Under the pieces are notes generated by a model. That model ran no database searches, was not told the DNA's origin, and saw only the letters and a list, made by a program, of their open reading frames with translations. This document shows, one piece after another, positions 13,903 through 58,457 of a stretch of DNA of 64,000 nucleotides (positions are counted from its first letter, which is position 1; each line of letters begins with the position of its first letter). The stretch is from positions 12,581 to 76,580 of the forward strand of contig JACPGK010000002.1 of the NCBI GenBank assembly GCA_016182495.1, read 5' to 3'. Both the position numbers and the translations under genes were made by a program. The stretch comes from Candidatus Kerfeldbacteria bacterium. Lineage in GTDB: Bacteria; Patescibacteriota; Patescibacteriia; UBA9570.

Positions 13903-13945
13903 GTTAATTCAGCCCTATTATCGAGCCATTGGTGTACTGGTGGTC

Positions 13946-18951: not shown

Positions 18952-18954
18952 TAT

Positions 18955-19746
18955 TTGGGTATGACATTTTGGAAACACCATTGGCTAAGACTAATCATAG
19001 TAGGTGTAGTATTGTTGGGTGGTATAACGTTGTTGCGCAATACTATCAGTCGAACCATTGTTCAGCCGCTGGCTGGATTTTTTTATGAACAAGGTAATCA
19101 ATGGTGGCCGTGGCATGCCACTACCACTGATCAACTCCATACAGAAAACCAACAATTAAAAACTCAATTAGCCACAGCGGTGGGTGAAATAAGCAACTTA
19201 GAATTGCAGCTGCAACATTATCAAGAATATGAAGTGCAATTGAAATTTGCTGAACAGAATGAACTAACATTGGTACCAGCTCGTATTATTGGACGGGTTG
19301 GGCAAAGTACCACCACACAAATTTTGAATCTTAATCAAGGTAGCGAGGCTGGTATTGCTGTTGGCGATCCAGTAATTTATGCCGCTGGCATTGTGATTGG
19401 ATTGGTTCATAGTGTTGATGCTACTAGCGCAACGGTTTTACCAATTACTAGCCCATTGGTTAAGCTGCAAGCCGTTACCCAAACCAATCAGCAATCCACC
19501 GGCTTAATTAGCGGTGCTTTTGGTACTAGTTTAACCATGGATTATATCTTGAAAGATCAAACTGTGGCAATAGGTGATATTGTTATTACCAATGGTCACG
19601 ATACTGCTATCCCGCCAGGCTTATTAATTGGCACGGTAGCTAGCATTGCTACCGATACCAGTGATTTATTTACTACTGCTCAACTTAGTCCGTATTTACC
19701 CTATACCAGCGATTCAATCGTATCGGTCATAGTATCAAATCTATGA
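18955..19746 (+). CDS. mreC: Rod shape-determining protein MreC
   Basis: N-terminal TM, coiled-coil (LKTQLATAVGEISNLELQLQ), C-terminal beta domain; position between mreB and mreD. Confidence 0.75.
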   Translation: MGMTFWKHHWLRLIIVGVVLLGGITLLRNTISRTIVQPLAGFFYEQGNQWWPWHATTTDQLHTENQQLKTQLATAVGEISNLELQLQHYQEYEVQLKFAEQNELTLVPARIIGRVGQSTTTQILNLNQGSEAGIAVGDPVIYAAGIVIGLVHSVDATSATVLPITSPLVKLQAVTQTNQQSTGLISGAFGTSLTMDYILKDQTVAIGDIVITNGHDTAIPPGLLIGTVASIATDTSDLFTTAQLSPYLPYTSDSIVSVIVSNL

Positions 19747-20240
19747 AACGAGGGTTGGTGATTATTTGTGTCAGCGTTATCGTACTAGGTACCGTATTAG
19801 AATTGGCTACCTTGTGGGCGGCACCGGTCACCCCTTTGCCGATTAGTCTTATCTTGATCAATTGTATTGCTTTGGCCTTGGTGTTGCCGTTTAAGGCAGT
19901 GATTGGATTGGGCGTAGTGCAAGGCCTACTGGCCGATAGTTTTTGGTACGGATCAGGTAGTATTTATACAGTAGCTATTATCGTCAGTATAGTTTTACTG
20001 CATTGGTTGCGACGTAGTTGGTTTAAACAAACTAATTTGCCAACCCAATTTTTGTTAAGTTTGTTAGCGTATGCCACGGGATACTGTTTGCTGGTACTAG
20101 CAGCGCGTATTTTTTTTACGTTCGGTAGTAGTGTGATTGATCCATGGTTACAGCCAAACGGTAGTGTACTGTTTGGTGGCATAGTGCTGGGAGCAACCAT
20201 AAGCGTACTAGTAGCCAAAATATATGACAGATTTGTTTAA
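19743..20240 (+). CDS. mreD: Rod shape-determining protein MreD
   Basis: 165-aa, 4-5 TM protein following mreC with overlapping stop/start. Confidence 0.65.
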   Translation: MKRGLVIICVSVIVLGTVLELATLWAAPVTPLPISLILINCIALALVLPFKAVIGLGVVQGLLADSFWYGSGSIYTVAIIVSIVLLHWLRRSWFKQTNLPTQFLLSLLAYATGYCLLVLAARIFFTFGSSVIDPWLQPNGSVLFGGIVLGATISVLVAKIYDRFV

Positions 20241-22155
20241 CACATTGCCCGATCAATCAATTCGTGATAAACGAATTGCGCAGCACTACGCCCAACGAGA
20301 AGTAGTAGTTGATATTCCGTATCAAACGGCCCAGCAAGATTTTTTAAGCGCCCCGATTAGTTCGGCTAAATTACGCTTTTTTTTGTTAGGCTTGTTTACC
20401 ATTTTGGGTATGCTATTTGTACGGTTACTGTATTTGCAAATTTGGCATGGCCAAAACTATGTGGCCGTGGCCGAAGATAATCGTCTGCGGCTAGAATATT
20501 TACCAGCAGCGCGTGGTATTATTTTTGATCGTACTGGCACACCATTAGTGCATAATATTCCTAATTTTACAGTTACTATCACACCAGCTGACTTGCCAAC
20601 TGAACCAATCATCTATGATAGCATCTTACAACAAACTGCTAATGCTCTAGCCGTATCGCTGATTGGGTTACAACAACAGGTAGTCGATCACGCTGCTGCG
20701 TTTCCTCATCAACCCTTAACCTTACAAGAATTTGTACCCTATGATCAGGCCTTGCAATTAGCTGCTCAAGTTGATTCTCTTCCTGGCGTGGCTGTAACCG
20801 TACTATCAGCTCGCCAGTACAGCGACGCTTTAGCCTATGCGCATGTGTTAGGATACCTCGGCAAAATTACCCCGGATGATTTACACAACCAATTACCAGA
20901 CGATTACTTGTTAACCGATCGGATTGGCCAAACTGGAGTAGAAGCTGTCTACGAAGCTAATTTACGTGGTCATAAAGGTCAACAACGCATCGAAGTCGAC
21001 GCTCTTGGTACTACCCAGGAAGTGGTGGCCGAAGAAGCGGCTCAACCCGGTGCTAACATTGTGCTAGCTATTGATCATGATTTGCAAACCACCTTGTATC
21101 AGGCATTAGCGGATACAGCCGAACAGCAACATCTCCCTGGCGGTGCAGCCGTAGCCATTGATCCACGGGATGGTTCAGTGCGAGCCTTGGTGAGTTATCC
21201 TAGTTTTGATAGCAATGCCTTTATTCAAGGATTATCCACTGCAGCCTATGACACTTTAACCACTGATAACCGTAAACCGTTATTTAATAAAGCCATTGCT
21301 GGAGAATACCCATCAGGTTCTACGTTTAAAGTAGTCATGGCAGCAGCGGCTTTGCAGGAGCAGGTGATCACGCCGGAGTATACAATCAATAGCACTGGCG
21401 GTATTCAAATTGGCCAGGCCGTATTTCCTGATTGGAAAAGTGGTGGTCATGGCGTCACCGCTGTGCGTAAGGCTTTAGCCGATTCAGTGAATACTTTTTT
21501 TTACATTGCTGGCGGCGGGATTTATCATCTCGAGAACAGATCAATTGAAGGGGGCTTGGGTATTGATCGAATTGATACCTATGCCGCTCGATTTGGCTTA
21601 GGTACGCAACGGGGGATTGATTTGCCTACCGAAGCAACTGGTTTTGTGCCTAGCCGTCAGTGGAAAGAACAATCACTCGGAGAACAATGGTATATTGGTG
21701 ATACCTATAATGTGTCGATTGGTCAGGGACAATTGTTGGTAACACCATTACAAGTAGCAGTGTATACAGCGGCCATTGCTAACAATGGCACTATCTATCA
21801 ACCGCAATTGGCTGAATATTTTACTGATCAAACTAATCAGGTTATTGCCACTATCCAACCAAAAGTTGAGCAAACCAACATTATTAATTCTTACTATTTA
21901 CAGGTGGTGCGCGAAGGCATGCGCCAAGCCGTGCTTGATGGTTCTGCTCGCAACCTAGCGACATTACCTTTTGCGGTAGCGGGTAAAACCGGCACAGCCG
22001 AAATTGCTGGTACTGATAAAACTCATTCTTGGTTTACCGCTTTTGCACCGTACGATGATCCTAGTTTGGTGATTACGGTATTAGTAGAAGAAGGTGGCGA
22101 AGGATACGCCGCTGCCTTGCCAATAGCACGCGCCGGTTTGGAAGAATATTTTTAG
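20224..22155 (+). CDS. mrdA: Penicillin-binding protein 2 (class B transpeptidase)
   Basis: SGSTFKV (SxxK), SVN, KTGTA motifs; N-terminal TM anchor; follows mreBCD. Confidence 0.85.
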   Translation: MTDLFNTLPDQSIRDKRIAQHYAQREVVVDIPYQTAQQDFLSAPISSAKLRFFLLGLFTILGMLFVRLLYLQIWHGQNYVAVAEDNRLRLEYLPAARGIIFDRTGTPLVHNIPNFTVTITPADLPTEPIIYDSILQQTANALAVSLIGLQQQVVDHAAAFPHQPLTLQEFVPYDQALQLAAQVDSLPGVAVTVLSARQYSDALAYAHVLGYLGKITPDDLHNQLPDDYLLTDRIGQTGVEAVYEANLRGHKGQQRIEVDALGTTQEVVAEEAAQPGANIVLAIDHDLQTTLYQALADTAEQQHLPGGAAVAIDPRDGSVRALVSYPSFDSNAFIQGLSTAAYDTLTTDNRKPLFNKAIAGEYPSGSTFKVVMAAAALQEQVITPEYTINSTGGIQIGQAVFPDWKSGGHGVTAVRKALADSVNTFFYIAGGGIYHLENRSIEGGLGIDRIDTYAARFGLGTQRGIDLPTEATGFVPSRQWKEQSLGEQWYIGDTYNVSIGQGQLLVTPLQVAVYTAAIANNGTIYQPQLAEYFTDQTNQVIATIQPKVEQTNIINSYYLQVVREGMRQAVLDGSARNLATLPFAVAGKTGTAEIAGTDKTHSWFTAFAPYDDPSLVITVLVEEGGEGYAAALPIARAGLEEYF

Positions 22156-22156
22156 T

Positions 22157-22185
22157 TTGACAGTTTCTGGATTGATCCGTATACT
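22157..22185 (+). promoter_or_regulatory. Sigma-70-like promoter TTGACA-N17-TATACT upstream of greA
   Basis: Consensus -35 at 22157-22162, 17-nt spacer, -10 TATACT at 22180-22185, about 30 nt before greA ATG. Confidence 0.6.
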
Positions 22186-22216
22186 AATACGCATCATAAT
22201 TTATTGATTCATTTTC

Positions 22217-22684
22217 ATGACTGACAAAACAACCTACGTTACCGAAGAGGGCTTAGCAAAATTGAAGCAGGAACTAGATTATTTAAAAACGACTAAGCGT
22301 AAAGAAATTGCTCATCGCATTGCTAGTGCTAAAGAACTCGGTGATTTATCAGAAAACGCCGAGTATAGTGATGCCAAAGAAGAACAGGGATTGATTGAGA
22401 ATAGAATTTTAGAGCTCGAAGAAACGTTGCGTCATATTGAGGTAATTAAAAAACCAAAAAAATCAACTACCGTGGTCATTGGATCAGTAATCGAAGTGTC
22501 TAATGATACCGGCAAAAAACAACAGTTTACCATTGTTGGTTCAAAAGAAGCCGCTCCGGGCGATGGCAAAATTTCTAACGAATCACCATTAGGCAGAGCC
22601 TTTTTGGGACGAAAACTTGACGAACAAGTTACCGTTACTGTACCACGTGGTACGATGATTTATACCATTAGCAAAATAGCTTAA
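22217..22684 (+). CDS. greA: Transcription elongation factor GreA
   Basis: 155 aa, N-terminal coiled-coil with acidic tip region, C-terminal FKBP-like domain (typical GreA length and layout). Confidence 0.8.
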   Translation: MTDKTTYVTEEGLAKLKQELDYLKTTKRKEIAHRIASAKELGDLSENAEYSDAKEEQGLIENRILELEETLRHIEVIKKPKKSTTVVIGSVIEVSNDTGKKQQFTIVGSKEAAPGDGKISNESPLGRAFLGRKLDEQVTVTVPRGTMIYTISKIA

Positions 22685-22685
22685 T

Positions 22686-24719
22686 GTGTCAGAACGCGAT
22701 TACCGTTTAGAAAAACTTCAGCAGTACAACAAAAAATTTGGCACGGCCTATCCGGCGCATAGTAACCGCAGTCATAGCATTGCTGTGTTACTCCAGCAGT
22801 TTGATCGTTTAACTGATCAAACAGTGATACTGGCTGGTCGTTTACGATCCAAGCGTGAGCATGGCAAATTAACATTTGCTGTAATCGAAGATGCTTCTGG
22901 CACAGTACAATTAGCCTTAAGTCAGCAGCAATTGGGCGTTGATCTCTACCAGTCTGTAGCTAGCTGGTATGATGTGGGTGATATTGTGGAGGTGACCGGC
23001 CAACCATTTACCACCAAAGCTGGCGAGCGTTCATTGTTAGTACAGGCCATTAGATTACTGACTAAGGCGTTGCAGCCGCTGCCAGAAAAATGGCATGGCT
23101 TACAGGATGAAGAAACGCGCTACCGTAAACGCTATCTGGACTTGTTGGTAGATCAAGATCTACGAAATTTATTTGTTAAGAAAGCTAAATTTTGGAATTC
23201 AATCCGTCAATTTCTACTGACTGAAGGATTCCTTGAGGTAGAAACTCCAGTATTAGAAACTACCCCTGGTGGGGCTGATGCCGAACCTTTTACGACCCAC
23301 CATAATGCCCTTGATATTGATTTATACTTGCGTATCTCGATGGGTGAACTATGGCAAAAACGATTAATGGTGGCCGGCTATGAAAAAACTTTTGAAATTG
23401 GTCGTCAATTTCGTAATGAAGGTATTAGCCCAGAACATTTGCAGGATTATACTCAAATGGAGTTTTATTGGGCCTATGCTGATTATCAAGACACGATGAA
23501 ATTAGTTGAACGGATGTATAAACATTGCATCATGGAAACGTTTGGCACATTGCAGTTTACGATTCACAATTTTGTCGTAAATTTTGATCAGGCTTGGCCA
23601 TTACTCAATTACGTTGATACCATTCAACAGTACGCTGGCATTGATATTACCGCAGCCAGTGTCACGCAACTGCAACAACGCTGTGAGCAATTACATATTG
23701 CTATTGGTAGCGAACAAGTAAATCGCGCTCGCTTGTATGATAGTTTATGGAAATTTTGTCGTAAGCAAATTACTGGGCCAGCCTTTTTAGTTAATCACCC
23801 GGTGGAGGTATCACCCTTGGCCAAGCGGTTAGTTGATCAACCCCATTTGGTTGAACGCTATCAAGTAATTGTTGCTGGTAGCGAATTAGGTAATGGCTAC
23901 TCGGAACTGAACGATCCAATTGATCAACAACAACGATTTATTGAGCAAGCTAAGTTACGCACAGCTGGAGATGTCGAAGCGCAACGGCATGATCATGATT
24001 TTGTGGAGGCTCTAGAACTAGGCATGCCGCCAACGTCTGGATTTGGTGTCAGCGAACGATTATTTTCTTTTTTGGCTGACCGACCAATTCGCGAATGTGT
24101 TTTATTTCCGTTATTACGGCCTAAAATTAATGTAGTTGATCAAACCCTGGTTGAATTTTCAGCTGGTATTAGTCGAGCAGCCGCTCTCGATTGGATGACA
24201 ACAACCGTGACCGATGTTAACTTACAGCGACACATGTTAGCCACCGAGGCCTTAATGCGCGCCTTGGCCGAACGGTTTAAAGTTGTGGCGGTGGAAGCCT
24301 GGGGGATTGCTGGATTATTGCATGATATAGATTGGGAGAACACCACTCCAGAGACGCATAGCATGGTAGGAGCCGATTGGCTTGAGCAGCGTGGTGTGCA
24401 CCCAGCCATTGTGGCAGCTGTGCGCGAGCATAATTACCATCACAACCTGCCGCCTAGCTCATTGTTATCGAAATGTTTAATGTCGTTAGAACAACTGACC
24501 GGTTTTATTATGGCGGTAGCTTATGTACGACCAGATCGTACGCTAGCCACTGTTGAGGCGAAGAGTGTTAAAAAGAAACTCAAAGATAAAGCCTTTGCCC
24601 GCGGAGTTGACCGTGCTATGATCGAACAGTGTCAACAGCTCACTGGCTTAACCTTAGATGAAGCCATCGCTGTATGTTTAAAAGCCATGCAGGCGATTGC
24701 TAGTGATTTAGATTTATAA
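22686..24719 (+). CDS. lysS: Lysyl-tRNA synthetase (class II) fused to a C-terminal HD-domain
   Basis: N-terminal OB anticodon-binding, class II motifs (FRNEG, motif 3 GMPPTSGFGVSERL), then about 200-aa extension with H..HD..H..HxxH pattern (GLLHDIDWE, VREHNYHH). Confidence 0.85.
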   Translation: MSERDYRLEKLQQYNKKFGTAYPAHSNRSHSIAVLLQQFDRLTDQTVILAGRLRSKREHGKLTFAVIEDASGTVQLALSQQQLGVDLYQSVASWYDVGDIVEVTGQPFTTKAGERSLLVQAIRLLTKALQPLPEKWHGLQDEETRYRKRYLDLLVDQDLRNLFVKKAKFWNSIRQFLLTEGFLEVETPVLETTPGGADAEPFTTHHNALDIDLYLRISMGELWQKRLMVAGYEKTFEIGRQFRNEGISPEHLQDYTQMEFYWAYADYQDTMKLVERMYKHCIMETFGTLQFTIHNFVVNFDQAWPLLNYVDTIQQYAGIDITAASVTQLQQRCEQLHIAIGSEQVNRARLYDSLWKFCRKQITGPAFLVNHPVEVSPLAKRLVDQPHLVERYQVIVAGSELGNGYSELNDPIDQQQRFIEQAKLRTAGDVEAQRHDHDFVEALELGMPPTSGFGVSERLFSFLADRPIRECVLFPLLRPKINVVDQTLVEFSAGISRAAALDWMTTTVTDVNLQRHMLATEALMRALAERFKVVAVEAWGIAGLLHDIDWENTTPETHSMVGADWLEQRGVHPAIVAAVREHNYHHNLPPSSLLSKCLMSLEQLTGFIMAVAYVRPDRTLATVEAKSVKKKLKDKAFARGVDRAMIEQCQQLTGLTLDEAIAVCLKAMQAIASDLDL

Positions 24720-24727
24720 TTATTGCT

Positions 24728-26002
24728 ATGCTTGATATTAAATATATTCGTGAACATAGTGCTATTGTACAGCAAGCAGCCAAACATAAGGGGATTGATA
24801 TTAATATCGAGCAATTGTTGTTAGTTGATGATCAGCGGCGTAGTGTACAAAAAAAACTTGATGATTTACGGGCCGAACAAGGCAGAGCTAATCAGGCAAT
24901 TGCTCAAGCCGTGGCCGAAGATAAAGCCACTCGCATTGCCACCATGCGTACCTTGGCTGATACTATTAAAATTCTAGAACAGGAATTTCAAACTGTCGAC
25001 CAACTGTTTGAACAATTAATGTATCAAGTGCCCAATGTACCTGCTAACACAGTACCGATTGGAGCTGATGCTTCAGCCAATGTTGAATTAAGCACTGTTG
25101 GACAACCACCAGTTTTTTCCTTTACACCACTTGATCACTTGACTTTGGGAAAACAACTTAAATTGATTGATGCTGAACGCGGCGTTAAAGTGGCTGGTAG
25201 CAGAGCCTACTATTTAACTGGCCGTGGTGCTCAATTAGAACTCGCCTTAATGTGCTATGGGCTTGATTTTTTACGGGCCCGGGGGTTTACCCAACTGGCA
25301 ACGCCACTAATGGCTGCTGGAGAATTTTTTTATGGCACCGGACATTTTCCTTGGAACGAAAATGAAACCTTTAAAGCACTTGATAAGGATCGTGAATATT
25401 ATTTAATCGGGTCAGCTGAAATTACCTTGTGCGCTTATCACGCTCACGAAACATTACAGCAGGCTGAATTGCCAAAACGCTATACAGCCTGGACACCATG
25501 TTTTCGCACAGAAGTGGGTAGTTACGGTAAAGATACTAAGGGCTTATATCGGGTGCGTCAATTTAATAAGGTCGAGCAAGTGATGTTGTGTGTCAATGAT
25601 GATACCAGTGCTATGCAATTGTTTGAAGAGTTAATGCGTAATGCCGAAGATTTTTTACAGTCGTTGGAGTTACCTTATCGAGTGATGGAGCTATGTACTG
25701 GTGATATGGGCGCTGGCCAAAAATATAAGCGCGATATTGAAACCTGGATGCCATCACGACAAAGTTATGGTGAAACGCACTCCTGTTCGTGGTTGGGTGA
25801 TTTTCAAGCCCGGCGGCTTAATTTGCGTTATCGGGTTGCTGGCAAAACCAACTATTGTCAAACACTCAATAATACCTTAGTGGCTTCACCGCGCATGCTC
25901 ATTCCGTTATTAGAAAATCATCAACACGCTGATGGCTCGGTACAATTACCAGCCGTACTGCATAAATATATGAACGGCCTCACCGTACTGAAGCCAGAGT
26001 AG
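24728..26002 (+). CDS. serS: Seryl-tRNA synthetase
   Basis: MLDIKYIRE N-terminal coiled-coil arm, class II core, 424 aa. Confidence 0.85.
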   Translation: MLDIKYIREHSAIVQQAAKHKGIDINIEQLLLVDDQRRSVQKKLDDLRAEQGRANQAIAQAVAEDKATRIATMRTLADTIKILEQEFQTVDQLFEQLMYQVPNVPANTVPIGADASANVELSTVGQPPVFSFTPLDHLTLGKQLKLIDAERGVKVAGSRAYYLTGRGAQLELALMCYGLDFLRARGFTQLATPLMAAGEFFYGTGHFPWNENETFKALDKDREYYLIGSAEITLCAYHAHETLQQAELPKRYTAWTPCFRTEVGSYGKDTKGLYRVRQFNKVEQVMLCVNDDTSAMQLFEELMRNAEDFLQSLELPYRVMELCTGDMGAGQKYKRDIETWMPSRQSYGETHSCSWLGDFQARRLNLRYRVAGKTNYCQTLNNTLVASPRMLIPLLENHQHADGSVQLPAVLHKYMNGLTVLKPE

Positions 26003-26013
26003 GGGAGTGCTCA

Positions 26014-26943
26014 CTAACGCTCTAGCGCTAATTGAATTAAACGGTCTAATAACTGTGGAAACGGTATTCCAGCTACTCGAGCAGCTTCTGGTAACAAACT
26101 GGTATTGGTCATGCCGGGAATAGTATTGGCTTCTATAAAATAAAACAGTTGGGTATCACTTTCAAACATAAAATCAACCCGTAACATACCATGGGCTTTA
26201 ACGGCCTTAAATGTTCGACGAGTTAAATTTTCCAAGGTAGTGCGTAAGTCGTCGGTCAGTGGTGCCGGACACAAATGGGTTGACCCGCCATCTTCATATT
26301 TTGAAGCGTAATCATAAAAACTACCCTTTTGCGGGATAATTTCTATTGGTGGCAATACTACCGTATCAGCTAATGATCCAATCACCCCAACGGTATATTC
26401 TTTACCTTTAATAAAGCGTTCAACGATTACCGTTTGACTGTGTTCAAAGGCTACCGCCATGCCACGCTGTAAATCGGCAAATGATTCCGGAATGGTTACA
26501 CCAACACTCGAACCAGCATTACCAGGTTTAATGACGCACGGCAGTTGAATTTTTCGAAAATCAATTTGTTGATTACGATCAAATAATTCAAATTCAGGCG
26601 TTAACATGCCATGAGTCATCACTAAACGTTTAGTAGCTTCTTTATCCATGCACAAGGCCGAACAAAATACATTTGGTCCAACGTAGGGGAGAGCTAACAT
26701 TTCGCATAAGCCTTGAATGGTACCATCTTCACCAAAGCGGCCATGCAGCACTGGAAAAACCACATCAATGTTGCCGGCCAAAGCAGCCTGTAAAAAATCA
26801 GCTAATTGATCTTTTGGATCATACTGCACAACCGTATAACGATCAGTCGGAATAGCGGCAGCTACATTTTTACCTGATACCAATGAAACAGCCCGTTCAT
26901 TAGATTGCCCACCACTCAATACTGCTACAATCGGTTTACTCAT
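26014..26943 (-). CDS. ddl: D-alanine--D-alanine ligase
   Basis: VAVLSGGQSNERAVSLVSG N-terminus and ATP-grasp fold length (309 aa). Confidence 0.8.
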   Translation of the reverse strand: MSKPIVAVLSGGQSNERAVSLVSGKNVAAAIPTDRYTVVQYDPKDQLADFLQAALAGNIDVVFPVLHGRFGEDGTIQGLCEMLALPYVGPNVFCSALCMDKEATKRLVMTHGMLTPEFELFDRNQQIDFRKIQLPCVIKPGNAGSSVGVTIPESFADLQRGMAVAFEHSQTVIVERFIKGKEYTVGVIGSLADTVVLPPIEIIPQKGSFYDYASKYEDGGSTHLCPAPLTDDLRTTLENLTRRTFKAVKAHGMLRVDFMFESDTQLFYFIEANTIPGMTNTSLLPEAARVAGIPFPQLLDRLIQLALER

Positions 26944-26973
26944 GGATAGTAGTATACTATACTAGCAAGACTG

Positions 26974-28074
26974 ATGCCAATTGTTCGACTTAATCAACCG
27001 CCAAAATATCACAATCCTTACTTTCAAAAGCCAAAATACTCTCATTGGTTTTGGCAGCATGATGGTTGGGCGTATTTGGCAATCGCTATTTTATTGATTG
27101 GAGCAGGCTTGTTTTTTATGATCCAGCAACGTTGGTTGTGGATTGATCATATCACCATTAGCGGCAATGCGTATTTGACGGTTGATCAACTGACTCAACC
27201 AGTGCGGACTGTGCTGGCGAAAAAACGATGGTGGTTTTTTCCGCAACGATCATATCTATTTGTTGATACGACTGCTATTTATAATGAAATTACAGCTACT
27301 CTAGGTACTAATTTTGCTTTAGAACAACTGGTGGTAGATAAACAGTTTGCCGATACAATTCAAATTACGGTAGTTGAGCGCGTACCCGGACTAGTGTATA
27401 TCATTGGCCAAACGTACTATTACATCGATCAAGCTGGTGTAATCACTCAAGCCGTGGCCCAAGCAGAGGATCTCGACCCTCATTTTCCTCGCATTCGTGA
27501 CTTAAACACCAATCGCGGAATAACGGTTAATCAACTGGTCGTTAAACCAGAGGTGGTGGACTTCATTATTCATTTAAACGGTACGTTTACCGATCAACTC
27601 GGTTTTAATATATCTGAATATACTCTTTTGCCGGTGTCGTGTTTAGAAAAACAATTTGTCGCCGAACAATTATTAGCCGATGATATTTCAGAAACAACTG
27701 ATCCGGTGTTACAAGAAAAAAAGCGGGCCGTTTTGGAACAATTACAAAATGATACCATTAGCGTTGATGAAAGTTTGCAACAACTTGAACAATTAAAACA
27801 ACAAGGGGTGTTAGAGAATCAAAATACCGCTGGTACAAATTCAACTTTTATTCAATTGCAACCAGAGTATATTGCCACGGATTGTGATTTTACTCGTGTC
27901 ATTCGAGATGTGGCGGTGGTTACACAAGAAGGCCCCAGTGTGTATTTTGATACCACTGTGCCAATACAACAGCAATTAAATAATGTAGCAGCAGTTAAAG
28001 CCAGTACCATACCTGATTTGACTACGATTACATATATCGACGCGCGTTATCCTGATAGGGTTTATTTTGATTAA
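26974..28074 (+). CDS. Cell division protein FtsQ/DivIB-like (POTRA)
   Basis: N-terminal TM, then ITISGNAYLTVDQL POTRA-like start; adjacent to ddl as in dcw clusters. Confidence 0.6.
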   Translation: MPIVRLNQPPKYHNPYFQKPKYSHWFWQHDGWAYLAIAILLIGAGLFFMIQQRWLWIDHITISGNAYLTVDQLTQPVRTVLAKKRWWFFPQRSYLFVDTTAIYNEITATLGTNFALEQLVVDKQFADTIQITVVERVPGLVYIIGQTYYYIDQAGVITQAVAQAEDLDPHFPRIRDLNTNRGITVNQLVVKPEVVDFIIHLNGTFTDQLGFNISEYTLLPVSCLEKQFVAEQLLADDISETTDPVLQEKKRAVLEQLQNDTISVDESLQQLEQLKQQGVLENQNTAGTNSTFIQLQPEYIATDCDFTRVIRDVAVVTQEGPSVYFDTTVPIQQQLNNVAAVKASTIPDLTTITYIDARYPDRVYFD

Positions 28075-28087
28075 TGTGTCGTTTAAG

Positions 28088-28110
28088 ATATATTGTGCGA
28101 CGCAATATAT
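28088..28110. promoter_or_regulatory. Imperfect palindrome ATATATTG-N7-CAATATAT just after ftsQ-like stop
   Basis: 8-bp inverted arms at 28088-28095 and 28103-28110; possible operator, function unknown. Confidence 0.2.
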
Positions 28111-28145
28111 CTATTAAAATATAGCTCCCCTTCATACCTCTAGAA

Positions 28146-28175
28146 TTGACTTTTTTTTGTCACATATGGTATATA
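28146..28175 (+). promoter_or_regulatory. Sigma-70-like promoter TTGACT-N18-TATATA upstream of the GC-rich gene
   Basis: -35 28146-28151, -10 28170-28175, in AT-rich host-like DNA about 185 nt before ATG 28361. Confidence 0.5.
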
Positions 28176-28360
28176 GGGACGTTTTATTATCTATAAAACA
28201 TAGGCTAATAAATCAGGAGAACGTAGCTTGGCGTTGTTCTCAATTATAAGCCTAAGTATTAGGCTAGCTCTTTACCAAACCTTTCTTACCCGGGAGCAGT
28301 TCAGCTCCCAACATCCAAGTTGACTAGGTGACGCCAAACCTAGCAACTGGAAAGGGCGCC

Positions 28361-29569
28361 ATGAAGCGCTCGATCGTCCTTCTCATCACGCTGGTGACCA
28401 TGGTGGTCGCTGGCATCCCCAACAACTCCGTCGCGTGTGGGGTTACCCCCACCAGCTCGACCAACGAGAGGTTGGATGAGCATGGTGATACTTACACCAT
28501 CGACAACGACGACAACACTTACGCGTTGATCACCGACCTCTACGCCGACATCTACCCGGTGTTGCCCAACCAGAGCTACTCGGGATTCCATCTCGAGGCC
28601 TACTCCGCCTGCCTGGACAACGTCATCAACGTGAACATCGGGTACTGGGATGATGGTGTTGAGTTGTACGTCAACATCATCACCGAGGAGTTCCTGGTCA
28701 ACGATGGGGATAGCATCTCGTTTTCCTTCTCCCCTGTCGTCACTACTTCATTTCAGGTCATCATCATCGACTATAGCTGTGAGCTTGGTGTTCGTGAGAT
28801 GGCTGCGGTGGCGACGTACGAGTCCTGCAACGGCATCGACGACACCTGCGACGGTGCGGTTGACGAGGGCTACGACCTCGATGCCGATGGCTACACCTCG
28901 TGCGGCGGCGACTGTGTCGACACCGACCCCACGGTCAACCCCGGCGCCACCGAGCTGTGCGACGAGCAGGACAACGACTGCGACGGTGCCACCGACAACG
29001 ACTGCGACGGTGATGACGACACCACGCCGGTCGAGGACGACGATACGACGTCCGATGACGACACCACCGCGGACGACGACGACACGCCACCCGACGACGA
29101 CACGCCACCCGACGATGACACGACCTCGGGAGATGACGACACCACGGCCGATGACGACACCACGGCCGATGACGATACGACGGTGAACGACGATGACACG
29201 ACCTCGGGAGATGACGACACCACGGCCGATGACGACACCACTACGGTGGACGATGACGATACGACGGTGAACGACGATGACACCACGCCGCCCGAGGATG
29301 ACAACGACGGCGACGGGTACACGATGAACGACGGCGACTGCGATGACGCCGACAACGACGTCTACCCGGGCGCGGTCGAGCTGTGCGACGAGCAGGACAA
29401 CGACTGCGACGGCAACGTCGACGAGGATCCCGACGACTGCGGCGACTCCGGTCTGGACCGGGTGATCGCCTGCGGTGGGGGCTGCGACGCCTCCACCGGT
29501 GGTAGCCAGCAGGCCTGGATGGGTCTGCTGGTGGCGGTGATCCTGCTGCTGCGTCGCAGGCAGCAGTGA
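28361..29569 (+). CDS. Secreted acidic repeat protein with MopE-like putative metal-binding Cys motifs and MYXO-CTERM-like tail (GC-rich, foreign-looking)
   Basis: Signal peptide MKRSIVLLITLVTMVVAG; three CxDxDxDGxxxC..PGAxELCDEQDNDCDG modules; DDDTT(A/S/V) tandem repeats; C-terminal CGGGC..hydrophobic..RRRQQ; GAC/ACC/GCC-rich codons unlike neighbours. Start at ATG 28361 (GGAAAGGG SD) preferred over GTG 28328. Confidence 0.75.
   Translation: MKRSIVLLITLVTMVVAGIPNNSVACGVTPTSSTNERLDEHGDTYTIDNDDNTYALITDLYADIYPVLPNQSYSGFHLEAYSACLDNVINVNIGYWDDGVELYVNIITEEFLVNDGDSISFSFSPVVTTSFQVIIIDYSCELGVREMAAVATYESCNGIDDTCDGAVDEGYDLDADGYTSCGGDCVDTDPTVNPGATELCDEQDNDCDGATDNDCDGDDDTTPVEDDDTTSDDDTTADDDDTPPDDDTPPDDDTTSGDDDTTADDDTTADDDTTVNDDDTTSGDDDTTADDDTTTVDDDDTTVNDDDTTPPEDDNDGDGYTMNDGDCDDADNDVYPGAVELCDEQDNDCDGNVDEDPDDCGDSGLDRVIACGGGCDASTGGSQQAWMGLLVAVILLLRRRQQ
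29011..29295 (+). repeat. In-frame tandem repeats (18-nt GATGACGACACCACGGCC-like units nested in an approximately 84-nt higher-order repeat)
   Basis: Repeated gatgacacgacctcgggagatgacgacaccacggccgatgacgacacca block seen twice about 84 nt apart; encodes DDDTT[AS] tracts. Confidence 0.8.
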
Positions 29570-29603
29570 TCAATAGAGAAGGGTAAAGGTTCAGGAGGAA
29601 TCG

Positions 29604-29642
29604 GGGGAGGAGAGCTGTACAAAAAACACCGCTCTACTCCCC
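29604..29642. other. GC-rich hairpin between convergent genes (12-bp stem with 1 mismatch, 15-nt loop), no U-tract
   Basis: GGGGAGGAGAGC..GCTCTACTCCCC inverted repeat 35 nt after the GC-rich gene stop. Confidence 0.4.
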
Positions 29643-29690
29643 TACCCAAATAAGCCAGCTACAATTTCACAATGTACCGTAGCTAGTTTA

Positions 29691-30941
29691 TTACGGTAAA
29701 TACAACATCGGGTCAACCGGAATGCCGTTCAACAACACACTAAAATGCACATGTGAACCAGTAGAAAACGCCCCGGCTCCAGTGGTGCCGGGCAAGCCCC
29801 CAACATAAGCTACCACTTGGCCTTGGTTCACAGGTTGATCTGGTTCAATATTAGGAGCAATGCCGCTAACGTGCCCATACACCGTAGCAAAGTTATCCGC
29901 ATGCACAATCATCACATAGGCATAACTGGGTGAGCCATCAAATCGTACTACGGCCACTACCCCGCTATCAGCAGCTTTGAGGGGCGTGCCTTGGGGCGCG
30001 GCAATATCAATGGCATCGTGTTCAAAATAGCGCCGAAAAATATAATTAGGATCATGAAACGTAGTGGTGATTACTCCATTCACTGGCCAAATCGGTTGAA
30101 ACTCGGTTGGTAAGGTGAAATTAGCATTATCGTTTATGCCTGAACCAGTTTGGGCTTTAGTGAGTTGATCAAGGGTAGTGCGAGCAGATTTTTCTAAGGC
30201 AGATAATTCTGAATGAACGGCGGTTTGCTCATCTTGCAAATTTTTAACTAATTGCTGAAATTTAGCTTCATCATTTTGCACTTCGGTTAACAGGTTTTTT
30301 TTGTAATTTTTTTCACCAGCTAAAGAATCTTGCCGCACTTCTAATTCTTGTTCTTTTTCTTCGGCAGTTTGCTGACGATCGGATAAAACATCCTGATCTT
30401 CTTGCAGTTGTTGTTTTAAGGCTTGCAAATCAAGCAGGGCTTTGGTAAATTGCGTATTGACTTTTTCGGTATACTCAACCTGTTCGGAAAATTCCGACAA
30501 GGTTTGGTGAGTTAAGGCCACTTCAAGATAAGTTTGTTGTTCAAAATTATACAAATCAAGCACTAAAGCGCTGATTTGACCTTTTTTATCATCGACCTGT
30601 TCAGTTGTAGTAGCAATATCTATGGCCAGTTGATCAATTTGTAGCCCGAGCGTTTCAATTTCGTTACCGGTTTGCTCAATTTCAGTTTCATTAATAATAA
30701 TATCTTGATCAATCACTTCTAATTGACTGGTTAAATTTAATTTTTCTTGCTGTTTGGTTTTTAAGTTTTCTCGATAGGTATTAATTTTTTCTTCCAAACC
30801 ATCATTTTCCGATCGTTTTCGTTCAATATCAGCATTTAAACGATTTAATTTTTGTTGGGTAGCCGAATCATCCGCTGCTAGCGCCGGCCTAGCACACAGT
30901 ACCATCAGTAAACAAAGGCTACGAAGTGTGATCCATTTCAT
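29691..30941 (-). CDS. M23 family peptidase with N-terminal coiled-coil (EnvC/NlpD-like murein hydrolase or activator)
   Basis: Signal peptide, long heptad coiled-coil, C-terminal HDAID and HVHFSV (HxxxD, HxH) M23 motifs. Confidence 0.8.
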   Translation of the reverse strand: MKWITLRSLCLLMVLCARPALAADDSATQQKLNRLNADIERKRSENDGLEEKINTYRENLKTKQQEKLNLTSQLEVIDQDIIINETEIEQTGNEIETLGLQIDQLAIDIATTTEQVDDKKGQISALVLDLYNFEQQTYLEVALTHQTLSEFSEQVEYTEKVNTQFTKALLDLQALKQQLQEDQDVLSDRQQTAEEKEQELEVRQDSLAGEKNYKKNLLTEVQNDEAKFQQLVKNLQDEQTAVHSELSALEKSARTTLDQLTKAQTGSGINDNANFTLPTEFQPIWPVNGVITTTFHDPNYIFRRYFEHDAIDIAAPQGTPLKAADSGVVAVVRFDGSPSYAYVMIVHADNFATVYGHVSGIAPNIEPDQPVNQGQVVAYVGGLPGTTGAGAFSTGSHVHFSVLLNGIPVDPMLYLP

Positions 30942-32355
30942 AGTACGATGATAGCAAATTAATGGCTTGTTGCACACGCGCCAGAGTACGATCTTTTCCT
31001 AAAATAGCCGCTACGGCAAAGGGTGGTGGTGACGCTTTAACCCCAGTTAAGGCCACTCGCCAGGGCCACAAAATATCACCATTGTGTAACTGGTGTTGTT
31101 GAATCCAGGTAATAATGGTGTGTTCCAAATTGGTGGCTTGCCAGGTGGTGAGCTGTTGCAATTGTTCCAACAGCAGCTGTAAATAATGAGCGGTGTTTGC
31201 CGCAGTAGTTTTTTTCCACAGTAACAGGTTCGCTTCGTAGGTTAATTGATCGGTAAAGAAAAAAGTGCTGTTCGCAGTAATGTCAGAGAATTTTTTCAGA
31301 CGATCTTGTTCTAACGCTACAATCTGACTGATATAATCGATTGGGGCAGCTGGTAGATACGGCTGGCAATAGGTTATCAGTTCGGCTAAGGGCAGTTGCC
31401 GAATATATTGCCCATTAAACCAATCTAATTTTTCGGTATCAAAAATGGGGTTGGCATGGTTGATGTGTTGTAAATCAAAAGCCTGAATTAATTCAGCCAG
31501 GCTAAATATTTCTTGACTGGTTTTTGGATTCCAGCCAAGTAAAGCAATAAAGTTTACTACGGCCTGTGGCAAATAGCCTAATGATTTATATTCCAGCAAA
31601 CCAGTAGCACCTTCGCGCTTGGATAACTTACCGCCACCTTTTTTAATAAATAACGATAAATGGGCAAACACCGGCGGCGTCCAACCGCAGGCTTGGTACA
31701 GTAATACGTGTTTCGGCGTTGATGGAATCCATTCTTCCCCTCGAATTACATGAGTAATGTTACTAGCATGATCATCCACCACATTGGCTAAATGATAGGT
31801 TGGAAAACCATCCGATTTTAACAAAATTTGATCATCAAGTTCGCTACAGGCAAACTCAATTCGTCCACGCACGGCATCATCAATCGTAATCGTACCACTA
31901 TCCGGCACATTTAAACGAATAACATACGACTCATGTTGATCCAGTTTATGCTGAAGCTCTGCATTGGTTAACCGTAAGCAAGTTTTATCGTATTTAGGCG
32001 CGCGGCCTTTGGTACGTTGAATTTGACGCATTAACTCCAACCGCTCTGGCGTGCAAAAACAGTAATAAGCTGTACCACGCTTGACCAAAGTTTCAGCCTG
32101 CTGACGATATTCGTGAGTACGAGTTGATTGTTTGATGACAGGTTCTTCCCAATCAATCCCCAGCCAGCGCAAACCTTCATAAATACTAGCTTCGGCTTCA
32201 GGATGATAACGAGCTTGATCGGTATCTTCAATCCGTAATAAAAATTTACCGTGATTATGCTTGGCCCATAAATACGAATACAAAGCGGTGCGAGCGCCGC
32301 CAATGTGTAGGTGGCCGGTGGGAGATGGAGCAAATCGAGTAATTACTTGTGCCAT
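30919..32355 (-). CDS. gltX: Glutamyl-tRNA synthetase
   Basis: HIGGARTALYSYLWAKH (HIGH), GGKLSKREG (KMSKS-like); start at 32355 (MAQVITRFAPSPTG) preferred over 32397. Confidence 0.85.
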   Translation of the reverse strand: MAQVITRFAPSPTGHLHIGGARTALYSYLWAKHNHGKFLLRIEDTDQARYHPEAEASIYEGLRWLGIDWEEPVIKQSTRTHEYRQQAETLVKRGTAYYCFCTPERLELMRQIQRTKGRAPKYDKTCLRLTNAELQHKLDQHESYVIRLNVPDSGTITIDDAVRGRIEFACSELDDQILLKSDGFPTYHLANVVDDHASNITHVIRGEEWIPSTPKHVLLYQACGWTPPVFAHLSLFIKKGGGKLSKREGATGLLEYKSLGYLPQAVVNFIALLGWNPKTSQEIFSLAELIQAFDLQHINHANPIFDTEKLDWFNGQYIRQLPLAELITYCQPYLPAAPIDYISQIVALEQDRLKKFSDITANSTFFFTDQLTYEANLLLWKKTTAANTAHYLQLLLEQLQQLTTWQATNLEHTIITWIQQHQLHNGDILWPWRVALTGVKASPPPFAVAAILGKDRTLARVQQAINLLSSYYEMDHTS

Positions 32356-33044
32356 GATTGTACTACTAGCCACGGAAATACCACTACGGCTTGCCAAATA
32401 CGCTTAAAGCGGTGTGGTTGAATAATTAAACGCCACAGCCATTCTAGCTTAAGTGTACGAAATAATAAAGGCGCTCGAATTTGCTGACCAGTGAGATAAT
32501 CAATGCCGCCTCCAACCGTTAGCACTACTCGACTGTTAGCCAAATTAGCCCGGTTATGTTCTACCCACTGCTCTTGAGCTGGAGAACCTAGCGCAACAAT
32601 CACTAAGGCCGGCGCTGGCTTGGTAAATGTGGTAGTGGTTAACTCTACCTGACAGTTCGAATAGCGTTGCTGTAGAGCGGCGGCAATAGCAGAGCCACTT
32701 GATAACCCAGCCGGATTATAGCATACCCCCACAGTGAGTTGATGTTGATTGGCATAATCGAGTAAAGCAAACATGGTATCAACACCCGTCACTACTGTTT
32801 GTATTGCACCGCGACTGGCCCACACCGTACCTTGGCCATCGGGCAGTAACACATCGGCTGTATTTAACACAGTTTGAAAAGTATTATGTCGGCGAGCAGC
32901 TACTAAAATTTCTGGGTTGGGAGTAAATACAATTATTGGCCGCTCACTAGCCTCGGCGTGTAACTGCTGGATGAGGTAGTGCCATAACGGTTGCTGTGGA
33001 GTGGTGGTAATTCGTACGCCAAGAATGCTTGTTTCGGTCAGCAT
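32343..33044 (-). CDS. WecB/TagA/CpsF-family glycosyltransferase (GT26)
   Basis: ILGVRIT N-terminus and VLLPDGQGTVWASRG motif characteristic of GT26. Confidence 0.7.
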   Translation of the reverse strand: MLTETSILGVRITTTPQQPLWHYLIQQLHAEASERPIIVFTPNPEILVAARRHNTFQTVLNTADVLLPDGQGTVWASRGAIQTVVTGVDTMFALLDYANQHQLTVGVCYNPAGLSSGSAIAAALQQRYSNCQVELTTTTFTKPAPALVIVALGSPAQEQWVEHNRANLANSRVVLTVGGGIDYLTGQQIRAPLLFRTLKLEWLWRLIIQPHRFKRIWQAVVVFPWLVVQSWHK

Positions 33045-38239: not shown

Positions 38240-38991
38240 TGAGTATGCGTTTAAGTTTTGTTATTCCAGCTCATAACGAAGCGGCTTACCTGCCTCATTG
38301 TTTGGATTCAATTGTTGAACAGACTAAATTATTTCCATCAGCCGTTGAAATTATTGTGGTTGATAATGCTAGCACCGATGCTACTGCTGCAATCGCAAAA
38401 ACGTATCCAGCAGTTAAAGTGATCTTTGAACCAAACAAAGGCTTGGTGCAAGCTCGCCAGGCCGGCTATTTAGCTGCCAGCGGCGATTTGATTGCTAACG
38501 TTGATGCCGATACTATTCTTACGCCCGGTTGGCTACGACGAGTATTTGATGAATTTGGTCAGGATTCAAATTTAATCGCTCTCACTGGACCAGTGATTTA
38601 CTACGACCTGCCCAAACGCATTCGTTTTTTTGTACGATTATTTTTTTATGCGGCCTTTTTTACCCACATTAATAATCATTTTATTTTTCGTATTAGCGCG
38701 GTTATTCAAGGAGGAAATTTTGTATTGCGTCAATCAGCTTTAAAAGCTCTCGGTGGCTATGATACCAGGCTGACATTTTATGGTGAAGATGCCGATATCG
38801 CCCGACGTTTAACTAAGCTTGGTCGAGTTAAATTTACCTTTAAATTTCCAATGTTTGCCTCGGGCCGAAGGCTAGCGGCTGAAGGTGTTGTGACCATGGG
38901 CACACGGTATGCTTTAAATTATTTTTGGATAACTTTTTTTAAAAAACCGTTCAGTAAAACCTATCACGATATTCGATCCCTGGCAGAATGA
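38239..38991 (+). CDS. Glycosyltransferase family 2
   Basis: LSFVIPAHNEAAYLP..EIIVVDNASTDAT; DAD motif (NVDADTI). Confidence 0.8.
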   Translation: MSMRLSFVIPAHNEAAYLPHCLDSIVEQTKLFPSAVEIIVVDNASTDATAAIAKTYPAVKVIFEPNKGLVQARQAGYLAASGDLIANVDADTILTPGWLRRVFDEFGQDSNLIALTGPVIYYDLPKRIRFFVRLFFYAAFFTHINNHFIFRISAVIQGGNFVLRQSALKALGGYDTRLTFYGEDADIARRLTKLGRVKFTFKFPMFASGRRLAAEGVVTMGTRYALNYFWITFFKKPFSKTYHDIRSLAE

Positions 38992-44385: not shown

Positions 44386-44386
44386 A

Positions 44387-45073
44387 TTAATCTTGTTTTT
44401 TGGATTCAGTTTTTTCTTCTGTTTTGACCGGTTGCTCTTTAACAACACCAGCTACTTTTGATACATCTTCTGTCACAGCCTGATCTAATTCGGCTAATTC
44501 GGCTTCGCTACGCGGTGGTGTAACTTTTACCACAATATCGTCAGGTTGTTCTAATACCGTAATTGTTTCTGGCACCACTACATCGCGCACAAAAATAGCA
44601 TCTTCAAAGGTGCGTAAAGCGCTTAAATCAACCGAGATGGTTTTTATTAAATGTTGTGGTAAACATTTAATATGCAAGGTTGATTTATTCTTGACCAAAA
44701 TTCCAGCTAACTCTTTAACGGCTGGGGCTATGCCAACAAACTCAACATCTACTTCGGTTTGAATTTGTTCGGTCATGTTCACAACGTAAAAATCAATATG
44801 TTGAATTTCGTCAGTGATAGGTTGTTTTGCCACCGCCTGGATAATCACTTTGATAACTGGTTGCTGTTCGATCACTAAATCAATTAAACTGCTTTCGCCA
44901 GCTACCGTATAAGCGGCTGCAAAATCAGTGGCTGCTACCTGTACTATAGTATTAGGAAAACGATGTCCATACACCACGGCGGGGATAAAGCCAGCCTGCC
45001 GTAATGATGTATTATGTTGTTTACTCTGTTGACGTTGAGTTACACGCAAGGTCGTAGATGGGTTTTCAGTCAT
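44387..45073 (-). CDS. rplY: 50S ribosomal protein L25 / general stress protein Ctc form
   Basis: RQAGFIPAVVYG N-terminal L25 motif plus C-terminal extension typical of Ctc-type L25. Confidence 0.8.
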   Translation of the reverse strand: MTENPSTTLRVTQRQQSKQHNTSLRQAGFIPAVVYGHRFPNTIVQVAATDFAAAYTVAGESSLIDLVIEQQPVIKVIIQAVAKQPITDEIQHIDFYVVNMTEQIQTEVDVEFVGIAPAVKELAGILVKNKSTLHIKCLPQHLIKTISVDLSALRTFEDAIFVRDVVVPETITVLEQPDDIVVKVTPPRSEAELAELDQAVTEDVSKVAGVVKEQPVKTEEKTESKKQD

Positions 45074-58454: not shown

Positions 58455-58457
58455 AGA

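Follow-up and report, generated by a model that had tools for sequence, protein, structure and literature searches.

The window analysed here is a stretch of 64,000 nucleotides from contig JACPGK010000002.1 (assembly GCA_016182495.1, Candidatus Kerfeldbacteria bacterium). We investigated an intact open reading frame (ORF) of 402 amino acids in it, with an ATG start, at 28361-29569 on the forward strand. The ORF lies between the gene of an FtsQ-like POTRA protein on one side and that of an EnvC-like M23 peptidase on the other; it encodes a putatively secreted, C-terminally anchored protein with MopE-type repeats, and its composition is foreign to the genome around it. An alternative GTG start at 28328 gives a form of 413 amino acids, with 11 additional residues. 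GltX of the window shares 69% identity with Candidatus Kerfeldbacteria metagenome-assembled genomes (MAGs) and 62-68% with four further MAGs, which indicates that the host is a Kerfeldbacteria-like member of the Patescibacteria, or Candidate Phyla Radiation (CPR), and agrees with the reduced-genome host assumed in an earlier model-made note on this DNA (hereafter, the original prediction). The features of the locus are listed below in window coordinates, where L006, L009 and L010 denote contigs of related genomes.

28075..28112, forward: AT-rich element of about 35 nt after the stop codon of the FtsQ-like gene (…GTCGTTTAAGATATATTGTGCGACGCAATATAT…), putatively native, conserved in alignment with L006
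28145..28176, forward: promoter-like TTGACT-N18-TATATA, about 185 nt upstream of the ATG, a candidate site read by eye
28282..29650, no strand: high-GC island in the GC profile (55-69% GC, versus 41% for the window), with a leader of about 80 nt, the coding sequence and a 3' flank of about 80 nt
28361..29569, forward: coding sequence of the putatively secreted, C-terminally anchored MopE-repeat protein (ORF, Pfam, NCBIfam, codon usage)
28361..28435, forward: predicted signal peptide (MKR, hydrophobic core, and PNNSVA followed by C across the putative cleavage site; sequence and AlphaFold helix at residues 2-17)
28478..28810, forward: divergent discoidin or F5_F8 type C-like (galactose-binding-like) domain, about aa 40-150 (phmmer, hhalign)
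28817..28999, forward: half MopE unit (aa 153-170) and unit 1 (aa 171-213; DLDADGY … CDEQDNDCDG) (Pfam, reading, AlphaFold)
29000..29299, forward: Asp/Thr-rich spacer, aa 214-313, with a repeat number taken from one assembly
29300..29428, forward: MopE unit 2 (aa 314-356; DNDGDGY … CDEQDNDCDG) (Pfam, repeat analysis, AlphaFold)
29456..29566, forward: MYXO-CTERM-type tail with ACGGGC (Cys371, Cys375), a Gly/Ser-rich segment, a transmembrane helix and RRRQQ (NCBIfam, reading, AlphaFold)
29581..29647, forward: structured 3' element directly after the stop codon (folding, comparison with L006 and L009)

The island also contains spurious long ORFs on both strands within 28340-29649 (for example, 28650-29186 on the forward strand, and 28891-29355 and 29241-29573 on the reverse strand), and the spurious ORF at 28340-28591 on the reverse strand is annotated as a gene in public Logan contigs.

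Domain organization of the encoded protein

The Pfam search detected PF11617 (Cu-binding_MopE, "putative metal-binding motif") in three stretches of the protein, with a score of 65.1 bits against a cutoff of 27, and thereby confirmed the putative MopE-type metal-binding motifs of the original prediction. Direct reading gives two full units (aa 171-213 and 314-356) and one half unit (aa 153-170). Both full units start with a DxDxDGY loop and end with CDEQDNDCDG, and at the DNA level they form a 136-nt direct repeat with 74% identity. The protein contains 16 Cys and 23.6% Asp. Asp makes up 47% and Thr 27% of the 100-residue spacer between the units, and this spacer is encoded by a tandem array of imperfect 18-21-nt repeats. 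With an alignment of 74 sequences, AlphaFold gave a block-mean pLDDT (predicted local distance difference test) of 78-95 for the MopE region (about aa 151-210; at least 94 for aa 171-210), and predicted helices at the signal peptide (residues 2-17) and the C-terminus (383-401). The same run gave no model of the head or the spacer, the latter being predicted as disordered, and the prediction from the single sequence was unusable (pLDDT 33).

The signal peptide has Ser at position -3 and hence an atypical lipobox, so that signal peptidase I is the more likely enzyme to cleave it. A lipoprotein formed via Cys26 is unlikely, both for this reason and because the homologues in L006 and L009 have plain signal peptidase I sites. 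The DxDxDG acidic loops and paired Cys are what we take to be typical of Ca2+-stabilised, disulfide-bonded extracellular repeats, which suggests that the MopE modules of the target are of this kind. The name of the Pfam family would instead point to a copper-handling protein like MopE/CorA of methanotrophs. However, the short repeat motif alone is shared with these proteins and nothing similar lies outside it: a sequence search of the PDB (E ≤ 1) returned no match for the target, MopE included, a Foldseek fold search of the PDB gave none either, no MopE-specific domain was detected, and the window contains no copper- or methane-related genes. In addition, the motif itself is the acidic loop with paired Cys that we presume to be a calcium-type repeat. 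We consider a copper-handling role very unlikely.

The N-terminal domain had been described as lacking any recognisable motif. Indeed, aa 1-150 gave no Pfam match at E ≤ 1 and no NCBIfam match of their own, and the domain alone found no match in a word-indexed search of 5.8 billion proteins; remote homology, however, revealed a likeness to discoidin. An exhaustive phmmer search of 1.84 billion representatives returned just three weak matches for the domain. The protein P0122 (phmmer E 1.1e-6) aligns to the head of about 110 residues via both of its PF00754/PF22633 (F5/8 type C / NedA-like galactose-binding) domains, and hhalign of a small profile, made from the target head and its L009 counterpart, against these domains gave 95% probability and E 3e-8 over 82 columns. 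The L009 MopE protein has a discoidin-like head too, with a pairwise E of 6e-6 to that of the target. The discoidin alignment of the target is limited to roughly the C-terminal 60% of the domain, and another top match of the head, an RTX-repeat protein, is probably compositional. We read the head, from these alignments, as a divergent discoidin-like binding domain.

Foreign composition and high-GC counterparts

The GC content of the whole window is 41%, and it stays at 40-45% everywhere but 28-30 kb, where the island reaches 50-69% in 200-nt steps (28300-29600). The GC content at third codon positions (GC3) of the target is 0.84, versus 0.343±0.028 (range 0.29-0.41) for the other 55 ORFs. This bias extends over the entire gene, with GC3 of 0.57-0.97 in all 30-codon windows, signal peptide and tail included, while the FtsQ-like and M23 neighbours do not exceed 0.50. 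Codons ending in A make up 1% of the target versus 29% of the host genes, TTA accounts for 0 of 21 versus 362 of 798 Leu codons, and the GAC:GAT ratio is 70:25 versus 43:346. The relative synonymous codon usage of the target correlates at +0.83 with that of non-MopE housekeeping genes of high-GC contigs, and at -0.32 with that of the host genes. The target gene is foreign in composition, a property missed by the original prediction, and is probably horizontally derived.

The full-length search yielded 3310 matches. All of the 120 listed contain PF11617, and the named ones among these are mainly from Myxococcota or Deltaproteobacteria. A Cys(x)C / transmembrane / RRR tail is present in 34 of the 120, and several of these tails score 22-34 bits on TIGR03901.2, the MYXO-CTERM model. 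The contigs L092-L095 (62-70% GC; with Ser/Thr kinases, MutS and other genes) encode close matches of the target, and the GC3 of these MopE genes equals that of the neighbouring genes, so that the MopE genes are native there. The target is an ordinary member of a common high-GC architecture in an unusual host. It resembles Myxococcota-type proteins that combine MopE repeats with a MYXO-CTERM tail (P0012, P0039, P0080 and P0120) in its signal peptide, tandem DxDxDG…CDGxDNDCDG units, Cys(x)C with transmembrane helix and RRR, and codon usage. It differs from them in its low-GC CPR host, 2.5 units, poly-Asp/Thr spacer, orphan discoidin-like head, whole-protein identity of at most 41%, and the lack of a myxosortase in view; their tails score 28-34 bits on TIGR03901.2 versus 23.4 for the target. 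The pattern of high-GC MopE genes is not limited to the Kerfeldbacteria-like clade, as those of two Candidatus Uhrbacteria contigs (L089:4813-10112 and L091:397-7148) show GC3 of 0.82-0.96 versus 0.40-0.51 in adjacent genes; they encode lipoprotein-type signal peptides and no Cys-transmembrane-Arg tail.

With a probability of roughly 55%, we favour the interpretation that the gene encodes a foreign (high-GC, Myxococcota-type) surface adhesin or receptor, which would be exported by the Sec system and for which the tail would serve at least as a C-terminal membrane anchor.

The C-terminal tail and the search for a sorting partner

The last 37 residues of the target are DRVIACGGGCDASTGGSQQAWMGLLVAVILLLRRRQQ, with the layout ACGGGC…AWMGLLVAVILLL followed by RRRQQ, where Cys371 and Cys375 form the CGGGC. 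The signature, transmembrane helix and Arg cluster stand at the extreme C-terminus, and the transmembrane segment is free of D, E, K, R and P. The target tail thus shows the features of MYXO-CTERM signals, in which the signature always contains a Cys, frequently accompanied by another close by, and the transmembrane segment lacks charged and Pro residues (bioRxiv 10.1101/2023.06.07.544157). Against a TIGR03901.2 cutoff of 20 bits, the full protein reached 19.1 and its last 60 aa, taken by themselves, 23.4 (E 5.6e-5); the MYXO-CTERM-type tripartite tail of the original prediction was thereby recovered at the threshold of the model. On TIGR03382 the tail scored 13.1 against a cutoff of 15.85; the tail alone also weakly matched the C-termini of several MXAN MYXO-CTERM families, and the NCBIfam models of the JDVT-CTERM as well as Synerg-CTERM and CGP-CTERM signals did not match it. 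Neither of the two outcomes named in advance as speaking against such a tail, no match to the models or a generic transmembrane anchor, was outright what we observed.

A cognate partner would be a CPBP-family myxosortase with the NF040914 core (MrtX, MrtC or MrtP). A Pfam scan of the window's 56 ORFs with 120 aa or more revealed no CPBP/Rce1-like protease, rhomboid, sortase or exosortase, as already claimed for a visible sorting partner, and the target is the sole protein with a Cys/transmembrane/Arg tail among window ORFs of at least 60 aa. MYXO-CTERM proteins are confined to Myxococcia, Polyangia and Bradymonadales, occur in 3-73 copies per genome and are processed by CPBP-family myxosortases (Haft, bioRxiv 10.1101/2023.06.07.544157); cleavage by MrtX has been demonstrated experimentally, and the surface display that follows needs type II secretion (PMC11980579). 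The host of the target is outside Myxococcota and Bradymonadales, the usual range of these proteins. Because proteins of this architecture are widespread in high-GC, Myxococcota-type genomes and belong there natively, the simplest view of the tail is that it was inherited from the sorting system of the donor, rather than being a sign of a myxosortase here.

Alternatively, the tail may be a working Cys-type sorting signal, for which an unseen CPBP-family, myxosortase-like protease would act together with a lipidating enzyme, both encoded elsewhere in the genome, to produce a lipid-anchored surface protein. The tail alone indeed passes the model cutoff, CPBP proteases are widespread, and our partner search covered about 64 kb of the genome only. 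The best argument comes from the three CPR proteins at this slot (see below), all of which have one or two Cys before the transmembrane helix and an Arg cluster despite extreme divergence. Moreover, single-substrate Cys-tail systems exist, for example JDVT-CTERM/MrtJ (PMC11980579); JDVT-CTERM as well as Synerg-CTERM and CGP-CTERM signals likewise have a tripartite tail with an invariant Cys and a single substrate per locus. However, in the known single-substrate systems such as that of JDVT-CTERM, the substrate adjoins the protease, whereas neither a CPBP protease nor a rhomboid is encoded in the window or beside the target gene. The tails of the L006 and L009 proteins gave no MYXO-CTERM match at E ≤ 10, the window has one such tail versus the 3-73 of a MYXO-CTERM genome (bioRxiv 10.1101/2023.06.07.544157), and the known pathway ends in type II secretion across an outer membrane, which is not known in CPR. 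We regard active sorting as possible but doubtful, and retain membrane anchoring of a foreign surface protein as the preferred interpretation.

Related cassettes at the same slot

The slot between FtsQ and M23 is also occupied in relatives. On L006, a contig of 158 kb, the gene order is M23, ORF2 (485 aa), a MopE protein (680 aa, 13 PF11617 stretches) and FtsQ; on L009, it is M23, ORF2 (589 aa), a MopE protein (754 aa, 11 PF11617 stretches) and the contig end. L010 runs on beyond M23 for about 1.1 kb and enters an ORF2-like gene of high GC content. The slot is thus seen in four genomes, with the FtsQ flank in the window and L006 only, and the M23 flank only in L009 and L010. The islands of the relatives have a GC content of 60-65% versus 38-46% in their flanks, and GC3 of 0.77-0.82 versus 0.28-0.43. 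The MopE proteins of L006 and L009 have a signal peptide and Cys/transmembrane/RRRR tails (…GTGCGCNNRLGFASSGSWVAILLLSLRRRRP and …GSGCMSARADI…GWVLLVLCLVLPRRRRR). L006, L008 and L010 are titled "uncultured Gammaproteobacteria", yet their gene order matches that of the window and of Kerfeldbacteria contigs, with GltX 62-68% identical, and these labels look wrong.

The window has no ORF2. The positions of this gene, between the MopE gene and M23, are as follows.

L006:10746-12203, reverse: ORF2
L009:10877-12646, reverse: ORF2
L010:about 2640-3681, reverse: ORF2

The ORF2 proteins have a signal peptide and are encoded by high-GC genes; their similarity to one another is weak and lies within roughly the C-terminal 130 residues, where a Cys pair is conserved, and those of L006 and L009 have aromatic C-terminal residues. 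A profile of this C-terminal part found no homologue in the set of 5.8 billion proteins, and the proteins show no detectable family and no OmpA domain.

The noncoding flanks were also compared. The 3' element of the window consists of a small hairpin and a long GGGGAG…CUCCCC hairpin, which lie inside a closing stem in the window and L006. Comparable elements follow the stop codons of the MopE genes in L006 (about 12310-12410) and L009 (about 12790-12880), and the folding z-scores were -2.6, -3.6 and -5.3. The window and L006 have the blocks AGGAGGAATCGG, TGTA and CCCAAAT[AG]AG in common, and L009 shares the long hairpin only; the stems differ in sequence between genomes yet still pair. On the upstream side, the conserved element at 28075..28112 marks this intergenic part, as far as the alignment can tell, as native DNA homologous between the window and L006. 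Sigma-70-like sites comparable to the promoter-like site at 28145..28176 are present in AT-rich DNA upstream of the genes in L006 (TTGACT…TATTGT) and L009 (TTGACA…TACAAT), as read by eye and not aligned in register. Our consensus promoter scan omitted the site in the window, because a -10 hexamer without T at its sixth position fails the rule of the scan.

Another five contigs of related genomes (L005, L007, L008, L085 and L086) end 35-50 nt after the M23 stop codon, where the island begins in the genomes assembled through; these ends could mean that strains vary here or that read coverage falls where GC changes abruptly. A metagenome scan with an M23 profile gave four loci only, all ending at M23, and the FtsQ query found no relative among species-representative genomes. 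The cassette is a lineage feature and not a one-off, which the original prediction had missed as well. Our literature search found no report of this gene family or slot.

Persistence of the high GC content

Comparison of the GltX genes of the window, L006 and L009 at four-fold degenerate sites gave p = 0.68-0.79, which amounts to saturation. Since the flanking synonymous sites are saturated, a cassette passed down neutrally from a shared ancestor should have drifted to the host composition; GC3 is about 0.8 in every cassette, in host genomes with GC3 of 0.3-0.4. Common descent is favoured over three independent imports because of the same slot and orientation, the identical gene order of L006 and L009, the comparable 3' elements, and an ORF2 without other relatives.

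Several observations weigh against the interpretation that we prefer. A simple ancient transfer with neutral decay does not fit the data, and a history of three separate recent imports, each delivering this orphan two-gene cassette to one slot, fits poorly. No close donor was detected: among the 120 listed matches, the best whole-protein match has 41% identity over 55% of the query, and single MopE units are at most 75% identical to database proteins, in addition to the scarcity of matches to the N-terminal domain in the 1.84 billion representatives. All three CPR tails retain the Cys motif though they are otherwise very different, which hints at more than simple anchoring. Finally, the expression, export and anchoring of the target are themselves putative.

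It is possible that the cassettes are exchanged or renewed more often than the protein divergence suggests, and the DNA identity of the MopE units to unrelated high-GC genes (70-85%) could seed such conversion; it is also possible that GC is kept high by some active process, for instance if the locus were a recombination hotspot with biased gene conversion. The MopE units of the target share 65-75% identity with database proteins versus 51-55% with the units of L006 and L009, but we did not use this difference as an argument for separate origins, since the best of thousands of matches is biased upward.

In its strongest form, this idea would make the slot a long-term resident, lineage-specific and hypervariable surface locus instead of a decaying import, with GC-rich codons that are actively maintained, for example by GC-biased gene conversion at a hotspot or by repeated patch-wise conversion from foreign MopE DNA that the cells take up. 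Such a locus would account for the recurrence of slot and orientation, the promoter-like site in native upstream DNA, the comparable 3' elements, and the ORF2 genes of L006, L009 and L010, which are just weakly related to each other and lack homologues elsewhere. It would also explain a GC3 of about 0.8 next to saturated synonymous sites, with the MopE units as possible recombination anchors, and the five assemblies that break just after M23 are what a strain-variable locus would be expected to give. On the other hand, no mechanism of such strength is documented in bacteria, the slot is shown by four genomes and its FtsQ side by two, and the contig breaks could equally be a coverage effect of the GC jump. 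Furthermore, the signal peptide, N-terminal domain and tail are GC-rich too, and these parts have no repeat anchors. We judge a resident locus of this kind unlikely; it is compatible with either fate of the tail.

Assembly support

The sharp GC jump raised the alternative that the locus is an assembly chimera, a contamination, or a dead and functionless relic. The public contigs L001 and L002 cover 16974-28980 of the window and L004 covers 29383-32861, at 99.98-100% identity, and both island junctions were recovered at 100% identity in contigs of three other sequencing runs. The organism occurs in the runs SRR12113385, SRR12113390, SRR12113419 and SRR12113422. The part from 28980 to 29383, with the Asp/Thr array, rests solely on the window's own assembly, and the public contigs break inside the gene; they stop at a 35-nt repeat common to both MopE units, as expected of short-k assemblies. 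Exact look-ups of the 402- and 413-aa forms of the target found nothing, because the public contigs break in this way. A non-matching 22-nt end of L003 was rejected as an empty-site junction, as it resembles a Nextera adapter, which we take it to be. In view of the independently recovered junctions, the intact ORF with signal peptide, domains and tail, and the same layout in relatives from other studies, an artefact or relic is highly improbable.

Genomic neighbourhood

The genes of the window are of the housekeeping type, encoding RpoA, S9, glycosyltransferases, two MreB, MreC, PBP2, FtsW/RodA, an RseP-like M50 protease, several aminoacyl-tRNA synthetases, Ddl, GltX, DnaE and a pyrimidine biosynthesis cluster. 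The Pfam scan of the 56 ORFs detected no integrase, tyrosine recombinase or transposase; Rfam gave no match at the gathering threshold in the window or in the 5' leader of the gene, and no tRNA was found in the window. We rejected an integron cassette, since the window has no integrase and the 3' element has nothing beyond its hairpin form in common with attC, and a diversity-generating retroelement, since the coding strand is A-rich and no reverse transcriptase lies nearby.

Several other genes deserve mention. The two full-length MreB paralogues lie about 6 kb apart (10749-11756 and 17902-18951, both forward), and the second is followed by MreC, a small protein with six transmembrane segments (19743-20240; MreD-like by position) and PBP2. 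The MreD-like ORF and that at 38964-40499 (reverse), a 511-aa predicted membrane protein with about five hydrophobic segments and no Pfam family, are the two window ORFs with multiple transmembrane segments and no family match. A class II (Asp/Lys/Asn-type) aminoacyl-tRNA synthetase at 22686-24719 (forward) has a C-terminal HD extension (Pfam HD, 32.8 bits, aa 515-598). Fructose-1,6-bisphosphatase and an apparently complete de novo pyrimidine cluster are encoded at 54649-55668 and 57696-63944 (reverse), the latter with a carbamoyl-phosphate synthase fragment at the window edge, PyrB, a dihydroorotase-like protein, PyrD with its Fe-S subunit, a PyrE-like protein and PyrF; this is more biosynthesis than is usually expected in CPR genomes. 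The ORF after DnaE (51478-52581, forward) gave a weak Baseplate_J-like match (E 1.6e-5, 24.8 bits, cutoff 21.1), with no other phage genes nearby. The window further contains tandem DUF3048 paralogues (42172-43266 and 43279-44448, both reverse) and a BNR/sortilin-Vps10-like repeat protein (13865-15028, forward).

Discussion

We propose the following scheme for the target as a foreign surface adhesin or receptor. The gene would be transcribed from the promoter-like site in the native AT-rich DNA downstream of ftsQ, and the product would be exported by the Sec system via its cleavable N-terminal signal peptide. The predicted ectodomain would have three parts: a distal discoidin-like head acting as a lectin or ligand-binding domain, as its remote homology suggests; disulfide-rich MopE modules, whose DxDxDG motifs probably bind Ca2+ or another divalent metal and which may serve as rigid spacers; and an acidic poly-Asp/Thr stalk of about 100 residues. 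The C-terminal helix and RRRQQ would arrest translocation and anchor the protein in the cytoplasmic membrane. CPR bacteria are not known to have an outer membrane, and membrane anchoring in a cell without one would already amount to surface display. The Cys-containing MYXO-CTERM signature would then be a legacy of a donor in which tails of this type undergo lipidation and cleavage by a CPBP-family myxosortase, and no partner would be needed for anchoring. The gene probably belongs to a cassette at the M23 / FtsQ-side slot, to which the relatives add the secreted orphan ORF2.

This layout is similar to that of the TraA/TraB outer-membrane-exchange receptor of Myxococcus xanthus (PMC3325183, PMC11980579), in which TraA has a type I signal, a lectin-like head, a Cys-rich stalk and a MYXO-CTERM-type tail, and traB follows traA, just as a second secreted protein is encoded immediately downstream of the MopE gene in L006 and L009. 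The likeness is confined to the layout: no sequence homology to TraA was detected, and no PA14, TIGR04201 or OmpA match was found in the target or in the ORF2 proteins of the relatives. Unlike TraA, the target has a discoidin-like head instead of PA14 and PF11617 repeats instead of TIGR04201, and ORF2, which lacks OmpA, is absent from the window. Genomic islands are generally known in Patescibacteria (PMC12455944), and the locus resembles them as a compositionally deviant segment in a streamlined CPR genome. In contrast to those islands, it comprises a single gene, has no mobility genes and recurs at one slot across species, and its high-GC, Myxococcota-like donor type is not reported there.

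A broader scenario would have Kerfeldbacteria-like CPR bacteria keep a fast-evolving receptor cassette at a fixed slot near division genes, composed of a lectin-like head, a Cys-rich stalk of MopE units and a Cys-type sorting tail, in some cases joined by a secreted partner; the cassette would let them attach to a high-GC host. Either conversion, with host or foreign DNA as the source, or biased gene conversion would continuously renew or preserve the high-GC codon usage. We consider this scenario speculative and rather improbable. If the cassette were indeed maintained in this manner, it would represent a locus-specific compositional equilibrium undescribed in bacteria, together with Cys-type C-terminal sorting in cells without an outer membrane.

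The protein itself is a variant of a known architecture, and what merits further study is the high-GC cassette that persists in CPR genomes. A GC3 near 0.8 in genomes with GC3 of 0.3-0.4, despite saturated flanking synonymous sites, poses a puzzle of molecular evolution, and the target offers a test case for Cys-type (myxosortase-class) sorting signals outside their home phyla. The lifestyle of CPR bacteria is believed to be one of attachment to other cells, and their attachment proteins and host ranges are mostly unknown. With its Myxococcota-type codon usage, native-looking promoter site and recurring slot, the target is a concrete candidate for host interaction and may point to the lineage of the host.

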